A DNA stretch of 64,000 nucleotides from Escherichia phage vB_EcoM_PTE-Eco05, in sequence record PQ306573.1, one strand, 5' to 3'. The notes beneath the pieces were generated by a model. It was not told the origin of the DNA. It saw nothing but the letters and a program-made list of their open reading frames with translations, and ran no database searches. The stretch's first letter is position 1. The number at the start of each line of letters is the position of its first letter. Both the position numbers and the translations under genes were made by a program. Of this stretch, positions 526-64,000 are shown in pieces.

Positions 526-600
526 GTCAAAGCTTTACGTTTATTGTGATACGATTATGGAGGAGAAATCCTCCAGTTTAATGATAATGAGGAAAATTAC

Positions 601-1563: not shown

Positions 1564-1564
1564 T

Positions 1565-2128: not shown

Positions 2129-2130
2129 AA

Positions 2131-44155: not shown

Positions 44156-44185
44156 ATAAACCTCCAAGGGCCGAAGCCCCTCTTA

Positions 44186-47497: not shown

Positions 47498-47505
47498 AAG
47501 TCCTC

Positions 47506-48162: not shown

Positions 48163-48188
48163 TTCGTGTCTCCTTATTAATATTAAAG

Positions 48189-48196
48189 TATTTATA
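48189..48196 (-). promoter_or_regulatory. Late promoter TATAAATA for gene 36 (minus strand)
   Basis: Reverse complement of plus-strand tatttata lies between the gene 35 stop and the gene 36 RBS. Confidence 0.5.
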
Positions 48197-48221
48197 CGCG
48201 AAAAGGAGACCAAAGTCTCCT

Positions 48222-49346
48222 TTATTCTGTGTACTCTTTAAATTCCTGCCCAAATACCTTACCTGTGTCGTTAGATAACTGAGTAGGCAAGTCCATTATA
48301 TCATTACCGGTTAATGATTCATCAATGTAATTAACACGAATACCGTTTATACCAAACTCGGCGGGTTTTGCTATACTTCCGTTACATGATACTTCAGTGA
48401 AAATAACATTTCTTAGTCCACCTTGACCGACTGAGGCCGTACGGTAACAATATACTGTAAAGCCATCAGCTTCAGCTGGTATTTCAACGTATTCTTCATA
48501 TAGCTTCCACTCCCGGGCAGTTCCATCAAAGTTTATATCTTTAGATGATATAGGAGAGCTAGATGGAGACTTAAAGAAACGAATTGAAAGTCTTGTGGTT
48601 CCTTCCTCTAATAATTCTTCATCAGCCATTAATTGAAATTTCAAATAAAGAAAATCTGTAGGCTTTAATCCATAGTTTGCGATAGGAGTAACAAGGGATG
48701 ATGTAGGCATCCTTTTTATTTCATTGTTAGTTCCTCCAACAGGAGATAAAAACGTTTCTAGAGCTTCATATGTACGTCTAGGATAGCCGGTAGCACCTAT
48801 ATCAGCAATAGAGTCATATACAATATCTAATGGAGTTGCGTAATCAGAAATTGTTTTCTTATTACTGTATTTTATGTGTTCTAATGCAATAGTATTTTTA
48901 CCTGAAACATAAAACGCTGAATATGAAATATCAACAAGACTAGCAACTTCAATCGACGGTATAACTGAACTCCCAGCAGCTTTAAACCATTCAATTATTT
49001 CTGGCGGCAAATTAAATTTGTTATTAGAAATAAATGCGAAAATGAAATTATCTGCGTATGTGTTAACAAACGAAATAAATGCAGCTGAAGTTGCATTATT
49101 TGTAGGCGCAAAATTGTATAATTTACTATCAACTATAGTTCCATTTTCCGGATTTATCACCCTAACATTTAGTCCAATACCAAAAGACTGCAACCCTAAA
49201 GGCTCATTTTGGAATAAAATATACGGATTAGTTGTTGAAAGCGGGCATGAACCCGCTATACTTAGCTTAAATCTAACTGAATTGCTTTCCGATAAAAACG
49301 GCGTTTGGACGTATCCCTGTCCAAACCTTGCCATAAATTTTTCCAT
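48222..49346 (-). CDS. 35: Long tail fibre hinge connector gp35
   Basis: 374 aa; MEKFMARFGQGYVQTPFLSES... start; synteny 34-35-36-37. Confidence 0.85.
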   Translation of the reverse strand: MEKFMARFGQGYVQTPFLSESNSVRFKLSIAGSCPLSTTNPYILFQNEPLGLQSFGIGLNVRVINPENGTIVDSKLYNFAPTNNATSAAFISFVNTYADNFIFAFISNNKFNLPPEIIEWFKAAGSSVIPSIEVASLVDISYSAFYVSGKNTIALEHIKYSNKKTISDYATPLDIVYDSIADIGATGYPRRTYEALETFLSPVGGTNNEIKRMPTSSLVTPIANYGLKPTDFLYLKFQLMADEELLEEGTTRLSIRFFKSPSSSPISSKDINFDGTAREWKLYEEYVEIPAEADGFTVYCYRTASVGQGGLRNVIFTEVSCNGSIAKPAEFGINGIRVNYIDESLTGNDIMDLPTQLSNDTGKVFGQEFKEYTE

Positions 49347-49354
49347 ATAACCTC

Positions 49355-52300
49355 TTATTCAACCCATATAAATTTAACTGTTTTGTTAACCGGGTCTGGA
49401 ACAATTCTCACATTTCCTAATTGTAAGAAGTCTCGAACAGTAAGGTTTCCAATAACAGCATTATCAGATGGGATAGCACCGACATCGCTAGGTGAAGGTG
49501 GGTTGCCACTATCAAATACCATTGCAAATGAAGTCCAAGCATCTTTATTTTTCTGCCAGGTACGAGTATAACGAATACTACCACCATTTGCACCTGTAGG
49601 ATAACAAATCCAATCCTGATAAAGCGAATCTAAGCTATTGCCGAATTGAGTCAAAGTACCAGGATATTTAATTTCTTGGTCACGGTTACCTTTGTTATCA
49701 CGCGTCCAGTATCCAGGGAATTGGCTATATACAGCAGAATCGTTAATGTCAATAGACCAAAAACCTACAGTAGAAGCTGTTGGTTTATCGGTATAAACAG
49801 TGGCAGTTTGAACGCCGTTAGAAATAATTCTGTTATTTACAGTTAACCCACCGGTAGTTATTGTTGCACCACTTGTGATTTGAACACCATTGTCAAGACG
49901 AACTAAGCCTGTGGCGTTGTTAATCGTGATCGGGCGTAAGTTATTAAACGTCCCGGTCTGGTCACCTGAGTTAGTTAATGCAATATAAGAACTGTTACCA
50001 GCGTTATAAAGCATAACACCATAGTTACCGTTAATAGCTCTGAATGCAATAGGAGAACTAGAAACAATTTCGCCTGTAGCACTAATAGGCCCGGTAAAAG
50101 TAGAAACACCTGTAACATTTAATCCATTTGTAGAAACAATACCTGTTGAATAAAGTGTTCCATTAATATTAAATGATACTTTATTATCAGCAGCGCGCTG
50201 AGAATAGAAATGGTATCCGGTTTCGTCACCCGCTTCAAATACTGTATCACGGGCACCATCTGTAGCGCTATTGCCCCATGCTCTAACAACGAAATTCTCT
50301 TTATTACTAAGAGATTGGGTTCCTTTAGTGAAAACTATTTCGGAACCGCTAGAGTCATTAAGAGTTAATCTACGAGTAACAGATGCTTCGGAACCAAAAG
50401 AAGCAGTGCTTGTAGATACTAAAGGAGCACTCAGGTTGGTCTGTTTAGTAAGACTTAAAGAACCATTAACCGTCTGGTCGATGTCTCTACGGATGAACTG
50501 AAGAGAATCTAGACCATCTAACAAATTACTATCAGCTGCTTTAGCTTTCAACGGTAAGTAGTTAGCAAGTACACGGTTTAATTCATATGGAGAAATAGCA
50601 TAACTATTTTTCTCATAAAGATTCAAATCCTGGGTATTACCTTGAGTATCGTCACCGACAAATGTAATAGAACCAGATGAAGTTTTAACGAATCCACGAA
50701 TTGCCGTAGTAGCAGTCCATGATGGTTCTGATTGAACAATCCATTTTAAATTCTTAGGTGATACAGCAGTATTAGCAGAAGTTCCCGTTACAGTTTCATC
50801 TTGAGTAGCAACCTTAATCACGCCTTCAGACGTTTCAGTGGACTTAGTCCCTAAAAGCTTTTTAGGAGTAATAAGAACATCATCTAAAGTTCCTGCATTA
50901 GATTCTGCCTGGGTCGCTACGCGAAGTGTACCGCGTTGTGTTTCATTTGCTTTAGAAATATCAAGAGTATAATGGTTCCACAAGGTTCCTTCTTCAATAA
51001 GTCCGGAATCAGAATTAACACTGGTACGGTCAGAAGAATCAAAATGAGTTTTAATTTTCAGTGGAGACGAGATACGAGTATCGTCAGTTCCAGTATCAAA
51101 TTCAACTTGCGTAGCAATTTCGGCTATGCCAGATAATCCTTCCGTAGCTTTCCTATCATTTAACGTCTTAGGCGTTACTGCTCTAGTATAATCAGTTCCA
51201 GTGTTAGTTTCTGCTTGCGTAGCAATTTCAATTAAACCAATACGACCATCAGTAGAAGTTTTCTTATGCAGAGTTTCAGGGGTCACTACAGCATTAGCCC
51301 AACCGGCTTGTGATTCGCCAGCGATAACTTCACTTTCAATAGCAAGAATTACTGCACCCTGCTGAGTAGGGGTAGCTTTATACTGGTCAAGAGCCTTTGG
51401 AGAAATAGTTAAATTATCTACGGCTTTGTTATAAACGTTAGTCCCAGCATTACCGCGAATAGTAGCAGCTGTAGTACCAGTCGTAGATGTGTATTTTACA
51501 ATACCAGATAAAACTTCAGAACCTTGACGGGCATCCAATTTCTTAGGAGTAATAATAGTGGTATCATCTGTGCCAGCATTAGTTTCAGCCTGAGTTGCAA
51601 CTTCAGCAACACCTCTACGGGTTTCAGTTGCTGTACGTTCATTCAATTTCTTAGGAGAAATAATCAAATCATCCTGGAATGCAAAATCGGTATTCTGGTT
51701 AACTTGTGCAGTTGTTGCAATACGAGCAATACCACGACGAGTTTCAGTTGCTGTACGATTTGCTAATGTTTCTGGAGTAATAGCCAGTTCTTTACCAGGA
51801 GCATTTTCTAAATCAACATTTGCTTGCGCTTGAGAAGCAAGAGCAATAACACCTAAACGAGCTCGAGTTGTATTGCTCGATGCATCGACTCGTTCGACGG
51901 TTACAGTGTTTTGTTGAACTACCCAATATTTTGTTTCAGATGAATAATCTTCTATATAAGCTAACTCAAGTACAGGTACATACGAAGTATCACCATTAAA
52001 TTCCAGCTCACTAACAGAAACCCATTGTGCATCAGGTGGATACTCCGAACGTTTTGGGAACTGTAATAAAGAAATACTGCTAGCAATTGTATCGCCTTCA
52101 GCAGCTTTAATTTTTACAGTTTGCCCTTTACGCATGTAATTCAACGATATTTTAACAGTATCGCCAGACAAAATATCTGTAGGCAAAGTAAGATTTACCG
52201 TCGAGATTGTATTATTATCAGTTCCAAAAACAAGAACTTCTTCATTAGGGTGTAAATCAGTATCATTACGAACTATACGTAAACGAGATTTCTGGTCACC

Positions 52301-53188
52301 TTCCCAAACTCTCCACAAACTAGATGCTGCATCAAAAATAAAAAGAGCATCAGCAAAATTACGTCCTTCTGCTACATGAACACCGGCTTCTCGTATAGAA
52401 GTTGTATCATCGTAAGTTTTGACAATTGTGTGATATAATGGGTTTAATTTGTCTAAATCCACTAAATTAATAATATCGCCATTATTAGCATTACGAGGCA
52501 ATGTAATATTAATAGGAGCGGCTGATGTAAAACGTCGAATGATAAAATCATTAGGTTGCGCTTGATATGGCGTAGCAGGAGTTACTGTGACTGCATTACG
52601 TTCGTAATCAGAAACATACATTTGCCATAGGCGGTTGCTAAAAATGAAGACCATTTTAGATTTTGGGTGCGTCATTAAAACTGAACGAACCTGTTGTCCT
52701 CTAAAGTTTACAATACTTTGAGCCGCTGCAGTAATTTGAACTTTTACATAGCCTACTCTACCGCCAATATCAGACAAAATAACTGTATCGCCATCTAAAG
52801 GATTTTGAGGCAAAGTGAAATTAATATCAGTGCCAGCTGAAGTATCAACCGCAATAGAGTTACCTACTGATAATTGGAAATCTCCGCCTTGAACTGTAAT
52901 CCATTCTGCATCAGCACGAGTTGCCTTCCATTTAGCCAAAGAGAAAGGGCCTGCCGGAGCTGGAATATCGCTTAAAGCTTGATAAAAACGATTATTATAA
53001 AGAACAATAAAATCTTTTGTATACGCGCGCGTCTCGTCATAATTCTGTACGGTGTTTTCTTGCACCAAAAAGTCAACGTTCACGCCATCGGTGCCAACTG
53101 TGCGGTCGGCAAGCGCAACGTTAACTATCTTATCACCGCCTGCGTCAAGACCATCTTCGGCCCTGAACTTACGTTTGATGTCAACCAT
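49355..53188 (-). CDS. 34: Long tail fibre proximal subunit gp34
   Basis: 1277 aa; repeated ...TPKKL...ATETRRG... motifs; late promoter upstream. Confidence 0.9.
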   Translation of the reverse strand: MVDIKRKFRAEDGLDAGGDKIVNVALADRTVGTDGVNVDFLVQENTVQNYDETRAYTKDFIVLYNNRFYQALSDIPAPAGPFSLAKWKATRADAEWITVQGGDFQLSVGNSIAVDTSAGTDINFTLPQNPLDGDTVILSDIGGRVGYVKVQITAAAQSIVNFRGQQVRSVLMTHPKSKMVFIFSNRLWQMYVSDYERNAVTVTPATPYQAQPNDFIIRRFTSAAPINITLPRNANNGDIINLVDLDKLNPLYHTIVKTYDDTTSIREAGVHVAEGRNFADALFIFDAASSLWRVWEGDQKSRLRIVRNDTDLHPNEEVLVFGTDNNTISTVNLTLPTDILSGDTVKISLNYMRKGQTVKIKAAEGDTIASSISLLQFPKRSEYPPDAQWVSVSELEFNGDTSYVPVLELAYIEDYSSETKYWVVQQNTVTVERVDASSNTTRARLGVIALASQAQANVDLENAPGKELAITPETLANRTATETRRGIARIATTAQVNQNTDFAFQDDLIISPKKLNERTATETRRGVAEVATQAETNAGTDDTTIITPKKLDARQGSEVLSGIVKYTSTTGTTAATIRGNAGTNVYNKAVDNLTISPKALDQYKATPTQQGAVILAIESEVIAGESQAGWANAVVTPETLHKKTSTDGRIGLIEIATQAETNTGTDYTRAVTPKTLNDRKATEGLSGIAEIATQVEFDTGTDDTRISSPLKIKTHFDSSDRTSVNSDSGLIEEGTLWNHYTLDISKANETQRGTLRVATQAESNAGTLDDVLITPKKLLGTKSTETSEGVIKVATQDETVTGTSANTAVSPKNLKWIVQSEPSWTATTAIRGFVKTSSGSITFVGDDTQGNTQDLNLYEKNSYAISPYELNRVLANYLPLKAKAADSNLLDGLDSLQFIRRDIDQTVNGSLSLTKQTNLSAPLVSTSTASFGSEASVTRRLTLNDSSGSEIVFTKGTQSLSNKENFVVRAWGNSATDGARDTVFEAGDETGYHFYSQRAADNKVSFNINGTLYSTGIVSTNGLNVTGVSTFTGPISATGEIVSSSPIAFRAINGNYGVMLYNAGNSSYIALTNSGDQTGTFNNLRPITINNATGLVRLDNGVQITSGATITTGGLTVNNRIISNGVQTATVYTDKPTASTVGFWSIDINDSAVYSQFPGYWTRDNKGNRDQEIKYPGTLTQFGNSLDSLYQDWICYPTGANGGSIRYTRTWQKNKDAWTSFAMVFDSGNPPSPSDVGAIPSDNAVIGNLTVRDFLQLGNVRIVPDPVNKTVKFIWVE

Positions 53189-53221
53189 GGTAGTCCTCTT
53201 ATCATTATGTGTTCTATTTTA

Positions 53222-53229
53222 CTATTTAT
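53222..53229 (-). promoter_or_regulatory. Late promoter TATAAATA for gene 34 (minus strand)
   Basis: Reverse complement of plus-strand tatttata, about 35 nt upstream of the gene 34 start. Confidence 0.55.
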
Positions 53230-53308
53230 AAATGAGTAAAAGACTATTTACGCTTTCGAACTAGTATGTTACTATGGTCTAAGTTGACTAACTGAACAAG
53301 AGGTTCAT

Positions 53309-54226
53309 ATGGATTTAGAAATGATGTTGGATGAAGATTACAAAGAAGGTATTGCGCTTGCAGACTTTAGTAACATTGCATTGGCAGCTGCATTAAACAA
53401 CTTTGAAGACGGCGATAAAATTACTGTTCCGATGGTTCGCCATGTAATCTTGAATTCAATTCGTAAAAACGTAGTGATGTTCCGTAAGCAAGGCTATACA
53501 AAATTTGTATTGTGTATGGATAATGCTACTTCAGGTTATTGGCGTCGTGACTTTGCTTACTATTACAAGAAAAATCGTAAAACCGATCGTGAAGCTTCAA
53601 AGTGGGATTGGGAAGGATATTTTACTGCACTCCATCAAGTTGTTGATGAGATTAAGAAATACATGCCATACGTTGTAATGGATATTGACAAGTATGAAGC
53701 GGATGACCATATCGGTGTATTAACTAAATATTTGTCATTAGCCGGTCATAAGGTATGTATTGTTGCATCAGACGGTGACTTTACACAATTACACAAATAT
53801 CCTAACGTTAAACAGTGGTCGCCACCACAGAAAAAATGGGTTAAAATTAAGAATGGTTCTGCTGAAATTGATTGCATGACTAAAATTCTTAAAGGTGACC
53901 GTAAAGACGGCGTTGCATCTGTTCGAGTTCGTGGCGACTTCTGGTTTACCAGAGTTGATGGTGAACGAACTCCGAGCATGAAAACAACGATTATTGAAGC
54001 AATTGCCAATGACCGTTCTCAATCTGAAGTATTATTAAGTGCAGAAGAATATAAACGGTATCAAGAAAATTTGGTTCTCATTGATTTTGATTATATCCCT
54101 GATAATATTGCTTCAACCATTATAGAGTATTATAACTCATATAAACCACAACCTAAAGGCAAGATTTATTCATACTTTGTAAAATCCGGTCTTTCTAAAT
54201 TAACAAGTGTAATTAATGAATTCTGA
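53309..54226 (+). CDS. rnh: RNase H (5'-3' exonuclease / flap endonuclease)
   Basis: 305 aa; FEN-family acidic clusters (DNATSGYWRR, YEADDHIG, ASDGDFTQL); position before dsbA-33-59-32. Confidence 0.85.
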   Translation: MDLEMMLDEDYKEGIALADFSNIALAAALNNFEDGDKITVPMVRHVILNSIRKNVVMFRKQGYTKFVLCMDNATSGYWRRDFAYYYKKNRKTDREASKWDWEGYFTALHQVVDEIKKYMPYVVMDIDKYEADDHIGVLTKYLSLAGHKVCIVASDGDFTQLHKYPNVKQWSPPQKKWVKIKNGSAEIDCMTKILKGDRKDGVASVRVRGDFWFTRVDGERTPSMKTTIIEAIANDRSQSEVLLSAEEYKRYQENLVLIDFDYIPDNIASTIIEYYNSYKPQPKGKIYSYFVKSGLSKLTSVINEF

Positions 54227-54233
54227 GGTAAAC

Positions 54234-54503
54234 ATGGCTAAGAAAGAAGCAGTTGAATTTAATCAAGATGTGCATGGTGAAGAACTGGCTAAACTAGTCA
54301 AGGAAGCTTCCGATAACAAACTTAAAATTTCTGGTTATAATGAACTGATTAAAGACATTCGTACTCGTGCTAAAGAAGAGCTTGGTGTCGATGGAAAAAT
54401 GTTTAATCGTTTGTTAGCTCTTTATCATAAAGACGCTCGTGACCAATTTGAAGCTGAAAACGAAGAGGTAGTCGAGCTTTATGACACAGTTTTCACTAAG
54501 TGA
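54234..54503 (+). CDS. dsbA: dsDNA-binding protein DsbA
   Basis: Track ORF 54216..54503 trimmed to ATG after gaggtaaac; 89 aa; synteny. Confidence 0.65.
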   Translation: MAKKEAVEFNQDVHGEELAKLVKEASDNKLKISGYNELIKDIRTRAKEELGVDGKMFNRLLALYHKDARDQFEAENEEVVELYDTVFTK

Positions 54504-54819
54504 TATTAAACCGGTTGATGAGGCCGGTTTATCTGAACAAGAATTAGCAGTAAAACACGATAAAGATGATATCGCTAAATTGCTTGATCGGCAAGAAAAC
54601 GGATTTATTATCGAATCCATGGTTGAACAATTTGGTATGTCTTATTTAGAAGCAACAACTGCTTTCTTGGAAGAAAATTCTATTCCAGAAACACAATTTG
54701 CTAAATTTATTCCTACAGGAATTGTTGAAAAAATTACAAGCGAAGCAATTGACGAAAACATGCTTCGCCCATCAGTTGCTCGTGGTGAAAAAACTAATAC
54801 GTTAGATTTCTTATTATGA
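54481..54819 (+). CDS. 33: Late-transcription co-activator gp33
   Basis: 112 aa; position between dsbA and 59. Confidence 0.75.
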   Translation: MTQFSLSDIKPVDEAGLSEQELAVKHDKDDIAKLLDRQENGFIIESMVEQFGMSYLEATTAFLEENSIPETQFAKFIPTGIVEKITSEAIDENMLRPSVARGEKTNTLDFLL

Positions 54820-55469
54820 TTAAAATACGCATGCCTCCTGATGGAGAACGTTATATTAACGGAAAATCGGTATACAAACTATACTTGATGTGCAAACAAC
54901 ATTTTAATGGTCGGTATGACGTAATCAAATATAACTGGTGCATGCGTGTTTCGGATAATGCGTACCAAAAACGCCGAGATAAATATTTCTTTGAAAAACT
55001 AGCAGAGAAATATAAATTGAAGGAACTCACCTTGATATTCATAAGCAACTTAGTTGCTAACCAAGACGCATGGATTGGTGAGATATCAGACGCTGATGCA
55101 TTAGTTTTCTATAGGGAATATATTGGACGTCTCAAACAAGCCAAGGAGACGTTTGCTGAAGATGTACGTAACATCTACTATTTCAGTAAGAAAGTTGAAG
55201 TTAGTGCGCTTCAAGAGATATTTGATTATAATAACAACGTTCAGTCGAGCTACATATTCAAATTGCTACAAAGCAATATAATTTCATTTGAGACTTTCTT
55301 ATTGTTGGACTCATTTTTGAATATTATAGATAAGCACGACGAACTCACCGATAACTTAGTCTGGCAAAATTATTCTACCAAATTAAAGGCATATCGAAAA
55401 ATACTTCAAATCGATGGAAATGCTGCTAAGAAATTGTTCATAGAAACAATCAAATCATGTAAGTATTAA
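54816..55469 (+). CDS. 59: Helicase loader gp59
   Basis: 217 aa; MIKIRMP...KYNWCMRVSDNAYQKRRDKYFF; position before gene 32. Confidence 0.85.
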   Translation: MIKIRMPPDGERYINGKSVYKLYLMCKQHFNGRYDVIKYNWCMRVSDNAYQKRRDKYFFEKLAEKYKLKELTLIFISNLVANQDAWIGEISDADALVFYREYIGRLKQAKETFAEDVRNIYYFSKKVEVSALQEIFDYNNNVQSSYIFKLLQSNIISFETFLLLDSFLNIIDKHDELTDNLVWQNYSTKLKAYRKILQIDGNAAKKLFIETIKSCKY

Positions 55470-55498
55470 GCTTTATTTCTTGTGTGTTAAAATTACTT

Positions 55499-55506
55499 TA
55501 TAAATA
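55499..55506 (+). promoter_or_regulatory. Late promoter TATAAATA upstream of gene 32
   Basis: Exact TATAAATA 80 nt upstream of the gene 32 ATG. Confidence 0.45.
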
Positions 55507-55516
55507 AATCATACCA

Positions 55517-55586
55517 GCTACGAGGTATAAGTGTCGTAGCAACCAACTGTAAAATTTAATTAATAATCTAAATAAAGGCAAATAAA
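55517..55586 (+). promoter_or_regulatory. Gene 32 mRNA leader: hairpin (gctacga/tcgtagc) followed by unstructured A/U-rich tract; candidate autoregulatory translational operator
   Basis: Stem arms 55517..55523 and 55534..55540 seen directly, then about 40 nt A/U-rich sequence up to the ATG; matches the known architecture of the T4 gene 32 operator. Confidence 0.45.
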
Positions 55587-56486
55587 ATGTTTAAACGTAA
55601 AAGTACCGCAGACCTCGCAGCTCAGATGGCTAAACTGAATGGTAACAAAGGTTTCTCTTCAGAAGATAAAGGTGAATGGAAGCTGAAACTCGACGCATCC
55701 GGTAATGGCCAAGCGGTAATTCGTTTCCTGCCGGCAAAAACAGATGACGCACTTCCGTTTGCAATTCTTGTTAACCACGGGTTCAAGAAAAATGGCAAAT
55801 GGTATATTGAAACCTGTTCATCTACACACGGCGATTATGACTCTTGTCCTGTATGTCAGTACATTAGTAAAAATGACCTGTACAATACCAACAAAACTGA
55901 ATATTCTCAACTGAAACGTAAAACTTCTTATTGGGCTAATATCCTGGTTGTTAAAGACCCTCAAGCTCCAGATAATGAAGGTAAAGTATTCAAATATCGT
56001 TTCGGTAAAAAGATTTGGGACAAAATCAATGCAATGATTGCAGTCGATACTGAAATGGGTGAAACTCCTGTTGATGTAACTTGCCCGTGGGAAGGTGCTA
56101 ACTTTGTGCTGAAAGTTAAACAGGTTTCTGGTTTCAGTAACTACGACGAATCTAAATTCCTGAATCAATCTGCGATTCCAAACATTGATGATGAATCTTT
56201 CCAGAAAGAATTGTTCGAACAAATGGTTGACCTTTCTGAAATGACTTCTAAAGATAAGTTCAAATCGTTTGAAGAATTGAATACTAAATTTAATCAAGTT
56301 CTTGGTACTGCCGCTCTGGGCGGTGCAGCAGCTGCCGCAGCTTCTGTTGCAGATAAAGTTGCTTCTGACCTTGACGATTTTGATAAAGACATGGAAGCCT
56401 TTAGTTCTGCAAAAACTGAAGATGACTTCATGAGTTCCTCGTCTTCTGACGATGGCGACCTCGATGACCTGTTAGCTGGTCTATAA
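55587..56486 (+). CDS. 32: Single-stranded DNA-binding protein gp32
   Basis: 299 aa; zinc-binding H..C..CPVC region; acidic Ser/Asp-rich C-terminal tail. Confidence 0.9.
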
Positions 56487-56492
56487 TAAATT

Positions 56493-56515
56493 GGGAGACT
56501 TCGGTCTCCCTTTTG
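56493..56515 (+). terminator. Rho-independent terminator (gggagac ttcg gtctccc followed by tttt)
   Basis: Seen directly after gene 32. Confidence 0.8.
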
Positions 56516-56541
56516 AGTATCTGTAAATTGCCGAAAAAGTT

Positions 56542-56575
56542 GTTTACTTCTTCCCTGGATGTGTTAGTATAGACC
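56542..56575 (+). promoter_or_regulatory. Early-type promoter (GTTTAC, spacer, TAGTATAGACC)
   Basis: Seen directly upstream of ORF 56600. Confidence 0.5.
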
Positions 56576-56599
56576 TATCAACAACATGAGGAAATCAAA

Positions 56600-56992
56600 A
56601 TGGAAATCGGAAAATCTTATATCATTAACCCTTTATTTAAAGATGACTTTGTTCAAGAAGCACCACACAATAACGCTAAGATGTTAAAATTGATTGAACT
56701 CCACGGGCCTAGTTTTGTTGTAAACGGAATGAAACCTGATTATGATAGCGATACGTCAAACGTAGTAAGTGTAACTATGGAAGATGGTACTGTATGTTCT
56801 GCCGGTGGTGAAATTGAAACTTATTTTGAGATTTATTATGATGAGTTCAAATACTTTACTGAGGTAGATTTAGTAAAGCCTCAACCTACTAACGAAGGTA
56901 TAACTTTAGGTATAACAAAAATCCATTGTATCGTAGATGAAACTAACGTCGACGAAATCATCAAACTTTTGCAAAAAACTTTTAAAAAGTAG
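56600..56992 (+). CDS. Hypothetical protein (130 aa)
   Basis: ATG after catgaggaaatcaaa. Confidence 0.55.
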   Translation: MEIGKSYIINPLFKDDFVQEAPHNNAKMLKLIELHGPSFVVNGMKPDYDSDTSNVVSVTMEDGTVCSAGGEIETYFEIYYDEFKYFTEVDLVKPQPTNEGITLGITKIHCIVDETNVDEIIKLLQKTFKK

Positions 56993-57025
56993 TTTATAAC
57001 AAGATAGGGCTATGTTATAGTAGTC
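56992..57025 (+). promoter_or_regulatory. Early-type promoter (GTTTATA, spacer, TATAGTAGTCC)
   Basis: Seen directly. Confidence 0.45.
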
Positions 57026-57054
57026 CTATCAAATCAAAAGTGAAGGAGAATAAA

Positions 57055-57303
57055 ATGAGATTGCAACGCCAGAGCATCAAAGATTCTGAAGTTAGAGGTA
57101 AATGGTACTTCAACATCGTTGGTAAAGATTCTGAACTTGTTGAAAAAGCTGAACATCTTTTACGCGATATGGGATGGGAAGATGAATGCGATGGATGTCC
57201 TCTTTATGAAGACGGAGAAAGCGCAGGATTCTGGATTTACCATTCTGACGTCGAGCAGTTTAAAGCTGATTGGAAAGTTGTTAAGAAAAATCTGAGGAAA
57301 TAA
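57055..57303 (+). CDS. Hypothetical protein (82 aa)
   Basis: Track ORF begins at a GTG at 57040; ATG 57055 follows aaggagaataaa. Confidence 0.5.
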   Translation: MRLQRQSIKDSEVRGKWYFNIVGKDSELVEKAEHLLRDMGWEDECDGCPLYEDGESAGFWIYHSDVEQFKADWKVVKKNLRK

Positions 57304-57305
57304 AA

Positions 57306-57893
57306 ATGCTTAAATTAGTATTCGCATGTGCTCCGACTAAAACAGTTGATGATAAACTGGAATATGCTTTTGGATTAGGTGATGGACTTCCATGGAAGCA
57401 TATCAAACAAGATATGAGTAACTTTGTTGCTCGCACTAAAAACACTGTAATGGTTATGGGTGCTAAGACATTTGCATCATTACCTCGTCTACTCCCAGAT
57501 CGTACTCATGTGGTTGTCACTGATATGGCCAGAGAACTGCCTAGGACCAAAACCAACGAACTTGCGCGTTTCTATATCACCCAATCTGAATTTATTACCT
57601 TGGTAATGGGTGGTGAAATTAACCTGTTTAGCACTGCAACTGACGTACCATTTAAACTTTCTACTGAACATGTTGATGTATCTGTTATTGGTGGCCCTGC
57701 TTTATTGAAACAAGCATTGCCTTATGCTGATGAAATCGTGATGACTAAAATCATTAAGAAATGTCGTGTTAATTCCGATGTTCAACTTGATAAAGATTTC
57801 GTCCAAGATATTATGCTTCAACGTTCTATGGTAGAATCTCATTACTACAGAATCGATGAACTCACCGAAATTACTGAGAGCGTTTATAAATGA
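57306..57893 (+). CDS. frd: Dihydrofolate reductase
   Basis: 195 aa; DHFR-like N-terminus (FACAPTKTVDDKLEYAFGLGDGLPWKHIKQDM) and position directly upstream of td. Confidence 0.8.
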   Translation: MLKLVFACAPTKTVDDKLEYAFGLGDGLPWKHIKQDMSNFVARTKNTVMVMGAKTFASLPRLLPDRTHVVVTDMARELPRTKTNELARFYITQSEFITLVMGGEINLFSTATDVPFKLSTEHVDVSVIGGPALLKQALPYADEIVMTKIIKKCRVNSDVQLDKDFVQDIMLQRSMVESHYYRIDELTEITESVYK

Positions 57894-58438
57894 AACAATA
57901 CCAATACCTGATTAAAGATATCTTAGAAAATGGCTACGAAACAGACGACCGTACAGGTACAGGCACTATTGCCCTGTTCGGAACTAAATTGCGATGGGAT
58001 CTGACTAAAGGATTCCCTGCGGTAACAACTAAGAAATTAGCATGGAAAGCTTGTATTGCCGAGTTACTGTGGTTCATGTCTGGCTCTACCAATGTTAATG
58101 ATTTGCGTATTCGTACTCATGGTAGTCTTATTCAAGGTAAAACTATTTGGGACGACAACTATGAAAATCAGGCAAAAGACCTTGGATATCATAGCGGCGA
58201 ACTTGGTCCTATTTATGGTAAGCAATGGCGTGATTTTGGTGGTGTAGACCAATTGGTCAAAACTATCGACCGTATTAAAGCTCTTCCTAATGATCGTCGT
58301 CAAATAGTTTCTGCATGGAACCCGGCTGAAATTGACCAAATGGCTCTTCCTCCTTGTCATATGTTCTATCAATTTAATGTGCGTAATGGACATCTTGATT
58401 TACAATGGTACCAACGCAGTGTTGATGTTTTCTTAGGT
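57890..58438 (+). CDS. td: Thymidylate synthase, exon 1
   Basis: TS motifs (RTGTGT, PPCH); coding sense ends at ...QRSVDVFLG and is followed by the canonical td intron 5' sequence taatt.aggcct. Confidence 0.9.
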
Positions 58439-59454
58439 TAATTTAGGCCTAGGTATAAGGTGACTTATACTTGTAATCTATCTAAACGGGGGACCTCTCT
58501 AGTAGACAATCCCGTGCTAAATTGTAGGACTACCCTTTAATAAATACTTCTATATAAAAAGAGGTGTTTATGAAAAGCGGAATTTATCAGATTAAAAACA
58601 CTTTAAACGGTAAAGTGTATGTTGGAAGTGCTAAAGATTTTGAGAAAAGATGGAAGAGGCGTTTTAAAGACCTTGAAAACGGTGTTCACTCTTCTATAAA
58701 ATTTCAAAGGTCTTTTAATAAACATGGTAATGTTTTTGAATGCTCTGTACTGGAAGAAATTCCATATGAGAAAGATTTGATTATTGAACGAGAAAATTTT
58801 TTGATTAAAGAGCTAAATTCTAAAATTAATGGATATAATATTGCTGATGCGTCTTTTGGCGATGTGCTTTCAAATCATCCATTAAAAGAAGAAATTGCTA
58901 AGAAACGAGCTGAAACTGTTAAAGCTAAGATGCTTAAGCTTGGTCCTGACGGTCGGAAAGCTCTTTATGGTAAACACGGAAGTAAAAATGGCCGATGGAA
59001 TCCAGAAAACCACAAGTTTTGTAAATGCGGTGTTCGCATACCATCTTCGGCCGATACTTGTGGAAAGTGCCGAAAACGTTCAGGTGAAAATAACCCGTTC
59101 TTTAATCACAAACATTCAGAAAAAACTAAAACTAAACTATCTGAAAAGATGAAAGGCAAAAAGCCAGCTAACATCAAAAAGATTTCATGCGATGGGATTA
59201 TTTTTGAATGTGCAGCCGATGCGGCTAGACATTTTGAAATTTCATCAGGATTAGTTACTTACCGTGTAAAATCTGATAAGTGGAATTGGTTCTACATAAA
59301 TGCCTAACGACTATCCCTTTAGGGAGTAGGGTCAAGTGACTCGAAACGATAGACAACTTGCTTTAACAAGTTGGAGATATAGTCTGCTCTGCATGGTGAC
59401 ATGCAGCTGGATATAATTCCGGGATAAGATTAACGACCTTATCTGAACATAATG
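58439..59454 (+). mobile_element. Group I self-splicing intron in td (1016 nt) carrying a homing endonuclease ORF
   Basis: Exon 1 ends in U (..cttaggt); intron ends ..ataatg; 5' and 3' core segments (gtgacttatacttg..., ...gggataagattaacgaccttatctgaacataatg) flank the ORF; spliced product restores ...FLG-LPFNIASY. Confidence 0.85.
58570..59307 (+). CDS. GIY-YIG homing endonuclease, I-TevI-like (intron-encoded)
   Basis: 245 aa from ATG after agaggtgttt; N-terminal GIYQIKN...GKVYVGSA GIY-YIG module; Cys4 zinc finger and C-terminal DNA-binding domain. Confidence 0.88.
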   Translation: MKSGIYQIKNTLNGKVYVGSAKDFEKRWKRRFKDLENGVHSSIKFQRSFNKHGNVFECSVLEEIPYEKDLIIERENFLIKELNSKINGYNIADASFGDVLSNHPLKEEIAKKRAETVKAKMLKLGPDGRKALYGKHGSKNGRWNPENHKFCKCGVRIPSSADTCGKCRKRSGENNPFFNHKHSEKTKTKLSEKMKGKKPANIKKISCDGIIFECAADAARHFEISSGLVTYRVKSDKWNWFYINA

Positions 59455-59766
59455 CTACCGTTCAACATTGCCTCGTACGCTGCCTTGACGCATATTGTAG
59501 CGAAGATGTGTAACCTTATCCCAGGTGATTTAGTGTTCTCAGGCGGCAACACGCATATCTACAGCAATCATGTAGAACAATGCAAAGAAGTTCTTCGTCG
59601 TGAACCTAAAGAGTTGTGTTCTCTTGAAATTAATTGGCCTAGTAATTTTGAGAATTGGCCTACAAAAATCCAAATGGACTGGGTTACTGGAACGATGACA
59701 CATTCTGATTTCGTTCTTAAAAATTACGAATCTCATCCAACTATCAAAGCTAAAATGGCGGTATAA
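59455..59766 (+). CDS. td: Thymidylate synthase, exon 2
   Basis: Begins LPFNIASYAALTHIV... (TS C-terminal core); joined exons give about 286 aa. Confidence 0.88.
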   Translation, partial: LPFNIASYAALTHIVAKMCNLIPGDLVFSGGNTHIYSNHVEQCKEVLRREPKELCSLEINWPSNFENWPTKIQMDWVTGTMTHSDFVLKNYESHPTIKAKMAV

Positions 59767-60021
59767 ATGATTTTACGTTTTATTAATTCATATGGCACCA
59801 CAATTTTTGAAATGAAAAATCCAAGTGAACTGGATATCCCTTCACCGAATAGTGAAATCACAGTTAAAGGTGAACGATTCATTTGTTATTCACATGAACG
59901 AATTTATGAATATCGTGAATTTTGTGGTGGTTACGGTATGGAAAAAGAACCATTGGTTTATTTCGATATCACGGTCTTGACACCTAAAGAATACGAAGAA
60001 ATTATTGCTGAGGATAATTAA
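59767..60021 (+). CDS. Hypothetical protein (84 aa)
   Basis: ATG directly after td stop. Confidence 0.45.
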   Translation: MILRFINSYGTTIFEMKNPSELDIPSPNSEITVKGERFICYSHERIYEYREFCGGYGMEKEPLVYFDITVLTPKEYEEIIAEDN

Positions 60022-60108
60022 CGCTTCAGTTTAAAAGTGTATAATAAATTAACGGGATAAATACTATCCCGTTTGGAGTAATGTCTATCAACCTATACTG
60101 AGGAATAT

Positions 60109-61533
60109 ATGCAAGTAACTAAGAGCAGTGGTGTATCCCAAAATTTTGATGCACAGAAAATTATTCAAGTCTTAACTTGGCAATGTGAAGGAACACAAAT
60201 TGACCCATATGAATTGTACGAAGAAATTAAGACCCATCTTGTCGACGGGATGAGCACCAAAGATATCCAGAAGATTTGTATTAAAGTTGCAGCTAACTCG
60301 ATTTCTGTCGAAGAACCTGATTATCAGTATGTCGCCGCCAAAGGGCTAATGTTTGCACTTCGTAAAGATGTATATGGGCAGTTTGAACCGCCTGCTTTTA
60401 TCGACCATATTTCTTATTGTGTTAATGAAGGCAAATATGACCCTGAGCTGTTGTCTAGATATTCTGCAGAAGAAATCATTTATCTTGATTCTCGGATTAA
60501 ACATGAGCGAGATTTTGACCTGACTTATGCTGGTGCTATGCAGCTTAAAGAAAAATACCTGGTTAAAGATAAAACAACTGGGAAGATTTATGAAACTCCA
60601 CAGTTTGCTATCATGGCTATCGGTATGGCCTTACACCAAGACGAAACTCATGACCGTTTGAAACATATTATTCGTTTTTATGATGCCGTTTCTACTCATC
60701 AAGTTTCATTGCCAACCCCAATTATGGCAGGTGCTCGTACTCCAACTCGCCAGTTCTCTAGTTGTGTAGTTATTGAAGCCGGTGATTCGTTAAAATCTAT
60801 TAACAAAACTTCAGCATCAATTATTGAATATATTTCTAAACGAGCTGGTATTGGTATCAACGTTGGTATGCTTCGTGCAGAAGGTTCTAAGATTGGTATG
60901 GGTGAAGTTCGACATACAGGTGTTATTCCATTTTGGAAACATTTCCAAACTGCAGTAAAATCTTGTTCTCAAGGTGGTATTCGTGGTGGTGCTGCTACAG
61001 CGTATTATCCGATGTGGCACTTAGAAGTAGAGAACCTATTAGTTCTGAAAAATAACAAAGGCGTGGATGAAAACCGTATTCGACATATGGACTACGGAAT
61101 TCAGATTAATGACCTCATGATGGAACGCCTTGGTAAAAATGATTATATTACTTTATTTAGCCCTCACGAAATGTCAGGCGAACTATACTACTCGTTCTTT
61201 GAAGATCAAGATAAATTCCGTGAGCTTTATGAGAAAGCTGAAAAAGACCCAACAATCAGAAAGAAAAGAATCAAAGCACTAGAACTCTTTGAATTGTTCA
61301 TGACTGAACGTTCTGGTACTGCTCGAATTTATCCACAGTTTGTTGATAACACGAATAACTACACTCCGTTTATTCGTGAAAAAGCTCCAATTCGTCAGAG
61401 TAACTTATGTTGTGAAATCGCTATTCCAACTAATGATGTGAATAGCCAACAAACCCGTTTAATCAAAATTAAGAAGTCGGATGTAGCTAAGTTTTATGAA
61501 GCTAATCCTGGCGGTATAATTCAAAGCAAATAA
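60109..61533 (+). CDS. nrdA: Ribonucleotide reductase large subunit, N-terminal fragment (NrdA-a)
   Basis: 474 aa; class Ia NrdA through active-site SNLCCEIAIPT..NDVN, then about 30 non-homologous residues and a stop. Confidence 0.85.
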   Translation: MQVTKSSGVSQNFDAQKIIQVLTWQCEGTQIDPYELYEEIKTHLVDGMSTKDIQKICIKVAANSISVEEPDYQYVAAKGLMFALRKDVYGQFEPPAFIDHISYCVNEGKYDPELLSRYSAEEIIYLDSRIKHERDFDLTYAGAMQLKEKYLVKDKTTGKIYETPQFAIMAIGMALHQDETHDRLKHIIRFYDAVSTHQVSLPTPIMAGARTPTRQFSSCVVIEAGDSLKSINKTSASIIEYISKRAGIGINVGMLRAEGSKIGMGEVRHTGVIPFWKHFQTAVKSCSQGGIRGGAATAYYPMWHLEVENLLVLKNNKGVDENRIRHMDYGIQINDLMMERLGKNDYITLFSPHEMSGELYYSFFEDQDKFRELYEKAEKDPTIRKKRIKALELFELFMTERSGTARIYPQFVDNTNNYTPFIREKAPIRQSNLCCEIAIPTNDVNSQQTRLIKIKKSDVAKFYEANPGGIIQSK

Positions 61534-61578
61534 AGTACACAGACCGTTAATAAATAATCCATAACAAGAGGAAAAGTT

Positions 61579-62289
61579 ATGGATTATTCTAAAATTTACA
61601 ATAACCTTATTTCTAAAGCTAAGAATAGAAAATTAGATTGCTATACCGAATCACACCATATTATACCTCTGTGTATTGGTGGTTCTGATACAAAGGAAAA
61701 CCTGGTAGATTTGACACCAGAAGAGCATTACATAGCTCATCAATTATTAGTAAAGATATATCCAGATAATCATAAATTGATATTTGCCGCTAATATGATG
61801 TGTGTTTATTCTAAAGATAATATTGAACGAAAGAACACCAATAAACGCCATGGGTGGCTTAGAAGAAAATTGGCTATTTCTGTATCTGAAAATAATAAAG
61901 GCAAACCAGCTTGGAACAAAGGTATTCCTATGTCTCCAGAAGTTAAATCTCGACTTCAAACATCTTGGGTGTTTACATTTCCGGATGGTCATGAGGAAAT
62001 TCATCGAGGTCTTAACGAATTTTGTAAAGAGCATAATTTAAATCCATCTGCAATGTCAGCCGTTTGTAAAGGTAAACGGGCGCATCACAAAGGATTTAAG
62101 TGTAAGAAATTGGATAAGATTTCAGAGCTTGATAATTTAGTTTTCGTCAGTAAACCTCATCCAAAGGGATTAAAACCCCATAACTTAATTGCTGTAAAAA
62201 TAAACGGTATAGAATATCAATCAATACATCGAGCATCTAAAGCTTTAGGAATTACTAGAAAAAAGGTAGAAGAATTAAATGAATATTGA
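61579..62289 (+). CDS. HNH homing endonuclease inserted within nrdA
   Basis: 236 aa; HNH motif ESHHIIPLCIGGSDTKENLVDLTPEEHYIAH; C-terminal putative DNA-binding modules; own RBS aagagga. Confidence 0.8.
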   Translation: MDYSKIYNNLISKAKNRKLDCYTESHHIIPLCIGGSDTKENLVDLTPEEHYIAHQLLVKIYPDNHKLIFAANMMCVYSKDNIERKNTNKRHGWLRRKLAISVSENNKGKPAWNKGIPMSPEVKSRLQTSWVFTFPDGHEEIHRGLNEFCKEHNLNPSAMSAVCKGKRAHHKGFKCKKLDKISELDNLVFVSKPHPKGLKPHNLIAVKINGIEYQSIHRASKALGITRKKVEELNEY

Positions 62290-63268
62290 TTATGAATTTG
62301 TAGATGAATTTTACGAAGATGATGAGTATACTACAATAAAAGTTATTGAAAACAAGGGAGAAGTGGGGCTTTGTACTCTCTCTGCATTCGTATTAGATAA
62401 ATTTGATTGGCAAGACCAAGATAAAATTAATGAACTTGCTGAAGTACAAGTACGTGCACTTGATAACCTGTTAGACTATCAAGATTATCCGGTTCCAGAA
62501 GCTTTAAAAGCTAAAAAGCGTCGTAATCTTGGTGTTGGTGTTACGAACTATGCTGCATGGTTAGCTTCTAACTTTGCTTCATATGAAGACGCTAACGATT
62601 TGACTCATGAATTGTTTGAGAGATTGCAATATGGCCTTATCAAAGCATCAATCAAACTCGCCAAAGAAAAAGGATGTTGCGAGTATTATTCAGACACTAA
62701 ATGGTCTAGAGGCGAATTACCTATCGACTGGTACAATAAAAAGATTGACCAAATCGCAGCCCCGAACTACGTCTGTGACTGGGAAGAACTTCGAGCTGAA
62801 CTCAAAGAACATGGAATTCGTAACTCAACGTTGTCTGCACTCATGCCTTGTGAGTCAAGCAGTCAAGTATCGAACTCTACAAACGGGATTGAGCCCCCAC
62901 GTGGTCCAGTAAGTATTAAAGAATCTAAAGAAGGCAACTTCCGACAGGTTGTTCCTAATATCGAACATAACATGAGTCTTTACGACTACGCGTGGAAACT
63001 TGCTAAGAAAGGTAATAAACCTTATTTGACCCAAGTTGCTATCATGTTGAAATGGGTGTGCCAATCTGCTTCTGCTAATACTTACTACGACCCTGCAGTA
63101 TTTGAGAAAGGTAAAGTGCCAATGTCAGTAATGCTTGACGATCTGCTTTACTTCTGGTACTTTGGCGGAAAAAACCTCTACTATCATAACACCCGTGATG
63201 GGTCAGGTACAGATGACTATGAATTAGAAACACCTAAAGCTGAAGATTGCTCTGCTTGTAAGCTTTAA
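62279..63268 (+). CDS. nrdA: Ribonucleotide reductase large subunit, C-terminal fragment (NrdA-b)
   Basis: 329 aa; resumes at ...GEVGLCTLSAF and contains SALMPCESSSQ and C-terminal CSACKL; start overlaps endonuclease gene end. Confidence 0.85.
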   Translation: MNIDYEFVDEFYEDDEYTTIKVIENKGEVGLCTLSAFVLDKFDWQDQDKINELAEVQVRALDNLLDYQDYPVPEALKAKKRRNLGVGVTNYAAWLASNFASYEDANDLTHELFERLQYGLIKASIKLAKEKGCCEYYSDTKWSRGELPIDWYNKKIDQIAAPNYVCDWEELRAELKEHGIRNSTLSALMPCESSSQVSNSTNGIEPPRGPVSIKESKEGNFRQVVPNIEHNMSLYDYAWKLAKKGNKPYLTQVAIMLKWVCQSASANTYYDPAVFEKGKVPMSVMLDDLLYFWYFGGKNLYYHNTRDGSGTDDYELETPKAEDCSACKL

Positions 63269-63313
63269 GACTTTTGATTATAATTTACTCATGGATGAGT
63301 TAATAACTAAGTG

Positions 63314-64000
63314 AGAAAATATAATGAGTACAGTTTTTAATACACAACAAGTCGATGTTTTGAACGAACCGATGTTCTTTGGTTCTGGTCTTGGTCTTGC
63401 ACGGTATGATATTCAGCGTCATAAAGTTTTTGAAGAACTTATAGAAAAATCCTTGTCATTTTTCTGGCGCCCCGAAGAGGTAAACTTAATGTTGGACTCT
63501 GCACAGTTCAATAAGCTTCCTCAGTTCCAACAGGACATCTTTACAAACAATCTTAAGTATCAATCATTATTGGATTCTATCCAAGGCAGGGCCCCATCTG
63601 CGGTACTTATGGCACTGCTTTCCGACCCTTCATTAGATACGTGGGTTGCAACATGGACATTCAGTGAAACTATTCACTCTCGTTCATATACTCATATTAT
63701 GCGAAATCTTTATACCGATCCATCCAAAGTATTTGATGAGATTGTATTAGACGAAGCAATCATGAAACGAGCTGAATCAATAGGTAAATATTACGATGAT
63801 GTTCTAGTCAAGACTCGTAATTGGGAAAATGCTAAAGAATTTGTAGAACTAGCTAAAGAATCTCCTGATGCCGACTTTCGTTTAAACCGAGCTATTAAAC
63901 AAGAAGCCGAAGCTAAACGTGCTTTAATGAAATCTCTTTACCTCTGTTTGCACGTTATTAATGCCTTAGAAGCTATTCGTTTTTATGTATCTTTTGCGTA
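63314..64000 (+). CDS. nrdB: Ribonucleotide reductase small subunit NrdB, 3' partial (runs off window)
   Basis: MSTVFNTQQVDVLNEPMFFG... with ferritin-like diiron motifs; no stop before window end. Confidence 0.85.

Follow-up and report, generated by a model that had tools for sequence, protein, structure and literature searches.

A td group I intron with an I-TevI orthologue in an RB69-like T-even phage

Introduction

In the 64,000-nucleotide stretch of Escherichia phage vB_EcoM_PTE-Eco05 that was analysed (sequence record PQ306573.1, hereafter the window) the thymidylate synthase gene td is interrupted by an insert with an open reading frame (ORF) of its own, and the locus raises the question of whether td is a single gene restored by splicing or a gene in pieces. 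A sequence-only reading had proposed a td group I intron with an I-TevI-like ORF at 57890-59766, and the boundaries, locus identities, helices and protein domains described below agree with that proposal. We are highly confident that the source of the window is a T-even phage of the RB69-like (Mosigvirus) type and that its td carries a mobile td group I intron of subgroup IA2, in which an intact I-TevI orthologue is looped out of P6a. The element, intron and endonuclease together, is one that is already known. What the locus yields directly is its anatomy, sequence identities, pairing, covariation, domains, selection signal and empty site.

Results

Boundaries of the insert and its known relatives

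The td gene is divided as follows.

57890..58438, + strand: td exon 1, 549 nt, 183 codons, ending VDVFLG, last base T58438
58439..59454, + strand: td group I intron, subgroup IA2, exactly 1016 nt, terminal G59454
59455..59766, + strand: td exon 2, LPFNIASY...MAV, then stop

The end of exon 1 at VDVFLG with a terminal T, the 1016-nt insert and the resumption of the frame at LPFNIASY had all been read from the letters beforehand, and each is found in the sequence. The insert starts with TAATTTAGGCC and finishes with ACATAATG, its terminal G59454 lying immediately 5' of CUACC; in the unspliced reading frame of exon 1 an in-frame TAA follows directly after T58438. The joined exons encode a thymidylate synthase of 286 aa (Pfam Thymidylat_synt, 1.9e-97), and the exons are under purifying selection (dN/dS 0.055). 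Because RB69 has the same td without the intron, colinear with the spliced exons and 97.2% identical to them (97% in exon 1), the insertion can be placed precisely to the base. Both states are on record, with 269 phage records showing an uninterrupted td junction and about 198 showing the intron.

Resemblance to known td copies is far beyond chance, since identity reaches 99.3% over 1517 nt with td of phage TuIa (AY262157.1), 99.0% over 1877 nt with Mosigvirus AV110 and 89.9% with the T4 td intron (NC_000866). The TuIa record, which reportedly stems from a 2004 survey of T-even introns, is a partial gene, and the first 360 nt of td lie outside the comparison; within it the same 1016-nt intron occupies the same site between RB69-like exons, and there are 11 point differences in total. 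Three of these fall in the intron, all of them in the ORF (58661, 58802, 58950), so that the ribozyme segments are identical, and at exon position -16 the window has T where TuIa has C. A text search of the literature for I-TuIaI or TuIa returned nothing relevant except a 2010 review. Over the whole td locus AV110, NRG-P0074 and 348Ecol098PP are 98.7-99.0% identical to the window, and AV110 differs in that +3, -16 and -28 carry the RB69 base and nrdA is uninterrupted.

The T4 intron shares the host gene, the insertion between Gly183 and Leu184, the helices and the position of the ORF in P6a, with the stop codon likewise 1 nt before P7 and the same arrangement of late-promoter box, hairpin and operator. 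Conservation is uneven, however: the exons are only ~78% identical to those of T4, whereas the ribozyme is 93-99% identical (5' part 93.2%, 3' part 98.6%), and dS between T4 and the window is 0.51 for the ORF as against 1.83 for td. Close to the junction, at -1, +3 and +15, the window has the T4 base and not the RB69 base. This is a co-conversion footprint of ~15 bp, and from it comes the U that the 5' splice site requires.

The ribozyme

The elements of the ribozyme are placed as listed below.

58433..58452, + strand: P1, exon -6..-1 with intron 9..14, plus U1.G8; internal guide sequence GGCCUAG
58453..58470, + strand: P2 hairpin, 7 bp, GUGA loop
58477..58482, + strand: P3 5' strand UCUAUC, partner 59348..59353
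58486..58515, + strand: P4-P5 domain; P4 ACGGGG/UCCCGU, P5 UCU/AGA, J4/5 GACC
58516..58532, + strand: P6/P6a 5' strands, partner 59287..59303 inside the last ORF codons
59287..59303, + strand: P6a/P6 3' strands, within codons WFYINA, intron positions 849..865
59309..59313, + strand: P7 5' strand GACUA, from intron position 871 on, 1 nt past the stop codon, partner 59380..59384
59314..59342, + strand: P7.1 (59314..59325) and P7.2 (59329..59342), IA2-specific hairpins
59348..59353, + strand: P3 3' strand GAUAGA, pairing with 58477..58482
59354..59373, + strand: P8 hairpin, from covariance model and covariation
59380..59384, + strand: P7 3' strand UAGUC, with J8/7 GAGAUA just before
59389..59443, + strand: P9 (59389..59406), P9.1 (59407..59422) and P9.2 (59423..59443), from covariance model and covariation

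Every core helix is present, and P1-P7 consist of standard and G.U pairs throughout. When the ORF is removed the minimum-energy fold recovers P1, P2, P3, P4, P5, P6a, P7.1, P7.2, P8, P9, P9.1 and P9.2. At the 5' splice site U58438 (exon -1) stands opposite intron G9 as a U.G wobble within a P1 of 6 to 7 pairs, and together with the terminal G, the P3-P4-P5-P6 and P7-P3'-P8-P7' core with J8/7, and P7.1/P7.2 between P7 and P3' (all 9 of whose pairs vary on both sides across the family) this places the insert among group I introns of subgroup IA2.

In an alignment of 68 distinct related phage intron 3' halves 95.9% of cells pair, as against 33-42% in a control in which partners were slid by 1-3 columns, and 34 of the 38 pairs have changes on both sides, which backs P7, P8 and P9. 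Among the six td introns compared the 5' half hardly varies: it offers little covariation beyond P1, and the P2-P5 helices, being the same in 6/6 sequences, provide no variation from which covariation could be read. A search of IMG/VR for 5'-half diversity with a 33-nt P2-P4 pattern found four contigs only, three of them already in the set and one a deletion derivative (L085). The T4 nrdB intron and many introns on IMG/VR contigs have the P7/J8-7/P9 core in nearly the same bases, together with the P7.1/P7.2 architecture, but lie in other host genes, carry other or no endonuclease ORFs and have divergent peripheral helices. A covariance model built from the 3' halves of td introns gives 175 bits on the window intron and 102 bits on the T4 nrdB intron.

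In an Rfam scan for group I introns, the check that the sequence-only reading had put forward, nothing in the whole window reaches the gathering score, while RF00028 matches the intron below threshold (36.2 bits, E 2.8e-7, against a gathering score of 50) in an alignment that sets P7, P3', P8, J8/7 and P9 correctly. The T4 td intron, self-splicing according to the literature, served as a control and likewise gives no hit at gathering score (40.3 bits). The threshold is non-discriminating here because the model cannot span an ORF loop of ~750 nt, and since T4 falls short as well we have dropped the absence of an Rfam hit as a test and reject the sub-threshold score as a refutation of a group I intron.

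Is td a gene in pieces?

It might be argued that there is no intron at all and that a free-standing GIY-YIG endonuclease cassette has split td into halves made as separate polypeptides. Several GenBank records annotate the locus in that way, with two 'thymidylate synthase' CDS and a homing endonuclease (those of AV110, NRG-P0074 and 348Ecol098PP list thymidylate synthase in two parts with the endonuclease), and in this very window nrdA is truly split so, 2 kb downstream of td, by the second and different homing endonuclease that the first reading had noticed there. The td insert, however, contains a complete td ribozyme that is backed by covariation, the junction relative to RB69 is exact to the base, and the T4 homologue is self-splicing, as reported in the literature. 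Moreover, at the junction exon 2 lacks a start codon and an RBS of its own, ATG 59452 being formed by the last bases of the intron. We regard a td in pieces as having next to no chance of being correct, and retain the reading of td as one gene with a group I intron. The nrdA insert was considered in turn as a second td-like intron and rejected, as the covariance model matches only the td intron in the window.

The endonuclease

The embedded ORF and the cleavage motif of its predicted target are located as follows.

58570..59307, + strand: I-TevI orthologue, GIY-YIG homing endonuclease, 245 aa, ATG 58570, stop 59305..59307
58412..58416, + strand: CAACG, CNNNG cleavage motif of the predicted I-TevI homing site, -27..-23 from the insertion site

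The ORF begins MKSGIYQIKNTLNGKVYVGS, spans intron positions 132..869 and sits in the P6a loop, extending at its 3' end into P6a and P6. Its product is full length and 87.8% identical to T4 I-TevI. A GIY-YIG module had been recognized in it from the letters, and both Pfam (PF01541, GIY-YIG, 1.1e-13; PF22635, 1.8e-17; PF07460, 2.3e-5; PF20987, 3.4e-31) and the I-TevI crystal-structure sequences in the PDB (1mk0 and 1ln0, ~2e-54; 1i3j, 5.2e-66) confirm this; at the level of sequence these matches settle its identity as I-TevI. The four I-TevI domains are all there, namely GIY-YIG, zinc finger, NUMOD3 and a C-terminal helix-turn-helix DNA-binding domain, as are the catalytic residues Y6, Y17, R27, E75 and N90 and the zinc cysteines C151, C153, C164 and C167. 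The CAACG motif is found at -27..-23 in exon 1 of the window and in RB69 td alike; the CNNNG motif and its distance from the insertion site are taken from the T4 literature (PMC2988022).

A further reading takes the intron for a decaying fossil, kept by descent alone, in which the ribozyme splices poorly or the endonuclease is inactive, as is I-TevIII in T4. One might cite in its favor an A54G change in the core (J4/5; at intron position 54 T4 has A and the window has G, at 58492), the 30 positions at which the protein departs from T4 I-TevI, 5 of them in the zinc-finger segment, and deletion derivatives elsewhere such as L085. Against this, all helices are intact with the U.G pair and terminal G present, the ORF is full length with every catalytic and zinc-binding residue and a dN/dS of 0.13 relative to T4 I-TevI, the td exons are themselves under purifying selection, and three independent isolates (window, TuIa and AV110) have ribozyme parts of identical sequence. 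Decay is, in our judgement, very improbable, and an intact mobile intron is the reading that we carry forward.

Predicted control of endonuclease expression

Three elements upstream of, or overlapping, the start of the ORF are relevant to its expression.

58539..58546, + strand: late-promoter-like box AATAAATA, 7/8 matches to TATAAATA, ATG 31 nt downstream
58540..58571, + strand: 12-bp hairpin covering the Shine-Dalgarno GAGG (58561..58564) and the A and U of AUG
58522..58544, + strand: putative operator-like sequence resembling the homing site; homologue of the T4 operator

By homology with T4 the late control elements of that phage are all present, with the box in an arm of the hairpin, an occluded RBS and an operator, an arrangement whose function is known from the literature for T4 only. 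Earlier, a stretch upstream of the ORF had been quoted as resembling, though not matching, a late promoter; that sequence, cttctatataaaaagaggtg, does exist (58547..58566) but was misplaced as a promoter, the T4-homologous box being AATAAATA within the 5' arm of the hairpin. In phage Lutter (MT682714.1) an octamer homologous to AATAAATA carries a promoter annotation. The octamer TATAAAAA (58553..58560) was rejected as a candidate, as it sits in the hairpin loop and its transcript would begin after the Shine-Dalgarno; at this position T4 reads TATATTTA, with 3 mismatches from the late consensus. A scan of 56500..60200 for sigma-70 promoters and terminators gave no excess over shuffled sequence.

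The suggestion that the RBS may be occluded as in T4 gains support from the folding of the candidate hairpin, at -11.6 kcal/mol (z -5.97), an energy equalled by 0/200 shuffles. Five other td introns keep the hairpin, and of these L005 alone has compensatory changes. The putative operator matches the window's own exon junction at 14/20 positions and the T4 homing site at 15/20, and has no CNNNG at the cleavage distance; 4/500 shuffles reach 14, so that the match is modestly above chance on its own. In T4 an operator resembling the homing site has been described (PMC2988022). The window contains two endonuclease genes of different families, both with the late-promoter-plus-hairpin design.

Discussion

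By analogy with T4 we would expect self-splicing, cleavage, promoter use, translational control and autorepression at this locus to proceed along the following lines. Early and middle transcripts would run through frd and td, and the intron RNA would fold and excise itself by two guanosine-initiated transesterifications, joining GGU to CUA to give the 286-aa enzyme. The 12-bp hairpin would, in such long transcripts, lock the RBS and AUG of the endonuclease and so keep ribosomes out of the intron, with the result that P6, P6a and P7, which have their 3' strands in or beside the end of the ORF, would not be unfolded. Late in infection transcription from AATAAATA would begin inside or past the 5' arm of the hairpin and, because the hairpin could not form in such a transcript, I-TevI would be translated. 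The enzyme would bind intronless td, for example that of RB69, round the insertion site and cut 23 and 25 nt upstream at CAACG, and double-strand-break repair would then copy the intron and a short flanking exon stretch into the cut allele. Probably I-TevI would also bind the operator-like target copy overlapping its own promoter and so repress itself.

The 11 differences from T4 in ribozyme and leader all lie in loops or preserve pairing. They comprise intron positions 6, 13 and 14 with exon -4 in P1, A54G in J4/5, one T fewer on the loop side of P6a, two hairpin-loop bases, an A-U to G.U change in the hairpin, a change in the P7.1 loop and a G.U to A-U change in P9.2. Within P1 the pairs -4/intron 12 and -5/intron 13 are G.U and U.G in T4 and are A-U and U-A here. 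The J4/5 change, also found in TuIa and AV110, is one substitution in a joining segment of the catalytic core. RB69-type td in turn differs from T4 at +9, +12 and +18, to which the intronless allele adds differences at -1, +3 and +15.

In principle the element of the TuIa and window type, instead of being a neutral copy, could represent natural variation in function. Of the 30 amino-acid changes 23 fall in the linker, zinc finger and DNA-binding domain, where they could bias the choice of target or operator towards RB69-type td, and the stronger P1 together with A54G could alter splicing efficiency. Taken as a whole we think this combined claim unlikely. Against it, phage G8 (L003) has a T4-type I-TevI beside an RB69-like exon 2, a combination which shows that the type of endonuclease is not closely tied to that of the exon.

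For annotation the consequence is that td is to be described as one spliced gene plus I-TevI, and not as two thymidylate synthase fragments as in several GenBank records. The locus is also a natural example of homing, in which a T4-like ribozyme (93-99%) resides in an RB69-type phage whose exons are only about 78% identical to those of T4.

Organization and Relatives of the td Locus

The thymidylate synthase gene (td) begins at position 57890, where it overlaps the stop codon of the dihydrofolate reductase gene directly upstream, and is interrupted as follows.

57890..58438, plus strand: td exon 1, 183 codons to ...VDVFLG, last base T58438, then TAA
58439..59454, plus strand: td intron, 1016 nt, 5' end TAATTTAGGCC, 3' end ACATAATG
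58570 (ATG) to 59305..59307 (stop), plus strand: intron ORF, 245 aa, starting MKSGIYQIKNTLNGKVYVGS...
59455 to 59764..59766 (stop), plus strand: td exon 2, frame resuming with LPFNIASY

The joined exons encode 286 aa that match Pfam Thymidylat_synt end to end (E 1.9e-97), and the sequence-only description of 57890..59766 is borne out in its exon ends, 1016-nt insert, LPFNIASY restart and embedded ORF. A megablast search with the entire td segment matched 547 phage records, 198 with at least 80% query coverage, the top full-length matches being Mosigvirus isolates such as AV110 (99.0% identity), which is annotated with a two-part thymidylate synthase and a homing endonuclease. The td gene of phage TuIa (GenBank AY262157.1) is 99.3% identical to that of the window across 1517 nt, and the two introns differ at three positions only, each in the ORF. 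The window element is a known td intron, catalogued almost base for base, and in its sequence we found nothing departing from the T4 model. Intron length is 1016 nt in the window, TuIa and phage G8 and 1017 nt in the T4 reference (NC_000866.4), which has one extra T (GGACTTGCCC; window site 58529..58531).

Ribozyme Structure

An Rfam scan of the whole window at the gathering score gave no group I match, an outcome that the sequence-only reading had named beforehand as counting against the intron. The miss is real, but it is not a refutation, as the T4 td intron, reported to self-splice (PMC2988022), likewise goes unmatched at that score; it is uninformative because the model cannot span the ∼750-nt ORF loop in P6a. 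When an E-value cut-off is applied instead, RF00028 does match, at 59176..59406 (36.2 bits, E 2.8e-7), placing P7, P3', P8, J8/7, P7' and P9 correctly, and below the gathering score the T4 td region reaches 40.3 bits.

Minimum-energy folding of the intron minus its ORF yields P1, P2, P3, P4, P5, P6a, P7.1, P7.2, P8, P9, P9.1 and P9.2. We compared helices among six td introns (the window, T4, G8, two further loci and Salmonella phage Melville); in the window all pairs from P1 to P7 are standard or G.U. Changes relative to T4 lie in loops (that of P7.1 is UUUG in T4, UUUA in the window) or preserve pairing: in P1, a G.U pair becomes A-U through a synonymous G to A at exon position -4 (counted from the insertion site), U.G becomes U-A through intron G13A, and U-A becomes U.G through A14G; in P9.2, a G.U pair becomes A-U through the change of G59424 to A. 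Separate from these is A54G (58492) in the core joining segment J4/5, common to the window, TuIa and AV110.

For the 3' half, a covariance model based on four td introns was aligned to 69 matches from IMG/VR contigs sharing a P7'-P9 31-mer. Over 68 distinct sequences, pairing holds in 95.9% of cells, and both sides vary in 34 of the 38 pairs; 0 of 500 shuffles scored as high and sliding partners by 1-3 columns lowered pairing to 33-42%, a very large margin even though fitting the alignment to the model favours the structure. Because the 5' half (P2-P5) is invariant across the six td sequences, support for these helices comes from homology only. Exact copies of the 31-nt module itself (59376..59406) are present in 70 IMG/VR contigs that vary widely in size and G+C. 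These contigs represent a large phage IA2 intron family, in which the P7/J8-7/P9 core is almost invariant and the peripheral helices covary freely.

The I-TevI Orthologue and Its Predicted Control

The ORF matches the Pfam families GIY-YIG, I-TevI_ZnF, NUMOD3 and I-TevI_DNA-bd, as well as the I-TevI crystal-structure sequences 1mk0 and 1ln0 (residues 1-97) and 1i3j and 1t2t (residues 130-245). Together with the near-identical records and the ribozyme helices, these matches support the proposed td group I intron with an I-TevI-like endonuclease. The product is 87.8% identical to T4 I-TevI (30 substitutions), with Y6, Y17, G19, R27, E75, N90 and the four zinc cysteines conserved; overall dN/dS comes to 0.13, and every domain has a dN well under its dS. 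It looks like a working gene. The target motif CAACG lies at -27..-23 in window exon 1 and in RB69 td, the same distance from the insertion site as reported for T4 I-TevI (PMC2988022).

Upstream of the ORF lie the following elements.

58522..58544, plus strand: operator-like copy of the homing site, overlapping the box; 14/20 matches to the window junction, 15/20 to that of T4
58539..58546, plus strand: late-promoter-like box AATAAATA, T4-homologous, one mismatch from TATAAATA, 31 nt upstream of the ATG
58540..58551 with 58560..58571, plus strand: 12-bp hairpin, its 5' arm containing the box; its stem includes GAGG and the AU of AUG
58553..58560, plus strand: octamer TATAAAAA, within the 58547..58566 string, one mismatch from TATAAATA

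The sequence-only reading had noted a resemblance to a late promoter in the 58547..58566 string, which contains TATAAAAA and not the T4-homologous box. We rejected TATAAAAA as a promoter, given its position in the hairpin loop and a transcript that would begin downstream of the Shine-Dalgarno sequence; in phage Lutter the AATAAATA octamer at equal distance is annotated as a promoter. The hairpin (-11.6 kcal/mol, z -5.97, equalled by 0 of 200 shuffles) is present in all six td introns, with compensatory changes in one of them (L005), and an RNA beginning 5-9 nt downstream of the box folds with merely -0.5 kcal/mol. The earlier suggestion of an occluded ribosome binding site thus gains support. 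In T4 this site is hidden in long early/middle transcripts and freed in late ones, premature translation impairing splicing (PMC2988022), and the predicted box and hairpin are the T4 control arrangement. The 14 matches of the operator-like copy were reached by 4 of 500 shuffles; a CNNNG at cleavage distance from it was looked for and is absent, in agreement with the published I-TevI autorepressor design (PMC2988022).

Empty Sites and Probable Signs of Homing

A 249-nt spliced-junction query finds an uninterrupted match in 269 records, including RB69, whose td (861 nt) is colinear with the joined exons of the window (97.2% identity, 24 differences). The entire window resembles RB69, which covers 90% of 44000..64000 at 96.3% identity. 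Relative to T4, identity is 93.2% in the intron sequence upstream of the ORF, 87.5% in the ORF and 98.6% in the 3' ribozyme part, and only ∼78% in the td exons. The differences from RB69 cluster at the insertion site, with 6 of 24 within -28..+15.

58411, 58423, 58435, 58438, 59457 and 59469, plus strand: differences from RB69 at -28, -16, -4, -1, +3 and +15

Three of the six agree with T4 and not with RB69, namely -1 (C to T), +3 (G to A) and +15 (C to T); the window bases at -28 and -16 are unlike those of RB69, T4 and AV110, and that at -4 unlike RB69 and T4. We read the T4 bases as what looks like a short co-conversion tract from homing, one that includes the U required by the 5' splice site. 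AV110 has the same intron but agrees with RB69 at +3, -16 and -28, and exon flanks therefore vary between isolates. Synonymous divergence from T4 is lower in the endonuclease gene (dS 0.51) than in td (dS 1.83), which also fits lateral intron movement.

In the T4-like phage G8 (169,650 nt; L073 is its IMG/VR copy), the intron and I-TevI are of T4 type and exon 1 resembles that of T4, but exon 2 resembles that of RB69, so that in some phages the td locus is mosaic around the intron. A 6.2-kb IMG/VR contig (L085, ∼2860..3080) has td exon 1 followed by the beginning of a T4-type intron, up to and including the first 6 I-TevI codons, and then, with nothing between, the distal portion of an exon 2 of RB69 type; this deletion has removed the ribozyme 3' core and broken td.

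The Split nrdA Gene

The second, different homing endonuclease proposed for nrdA is present as an HNH-type ORF. The nrdA gene lies in pieces 2 kb downstream of td (60109..63268).

60109..61533, plus strand: nrdA N-terminal part; 60109..61443 matches RB69 nrdA 1..1335
61549..61556, plus strand: second AATAAATA box, preceding the endonuclease gene; the only other plus-strand copy in 64 kb
61553..61565 with 61576..61588, plus strand: 13-bp hairpin, its 5' arm overlapped by the box; pairs the AUG at 61579
61579..62289, plus strand: HNH-type endonuclease ORF, 236 aa
62279..63268, plus strand: nrdA C-terminal part; 62381..63268 matches RB69 nrdA 1369..2256

An insert of 937 nt (61444..62380) replaces 33 nt of RB69 nrdA. 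It gives the N-terminal piece a new tail and stop codon and the C-terminal piece a new start at 62279, and it brings in the HNH-type ORF. Over the window the td covariance model finds nothing besides the td intron, and a td-like intron in nrdA was rejected since the model gave no match there, yet detected the nrdB intron of T4 (102 bits). The arrangement is common to 34 phage records and resembles that of Aeromonas phage Aeh1, where mobE splits nrdA. The 13-bp hairpin (-13.8 kcal/mol, z -4.67) was equalled by 0 of 200 shuffles, and with its box and hairpin the nrdA endonuclease gene has the same predicted control design as I-TevI.
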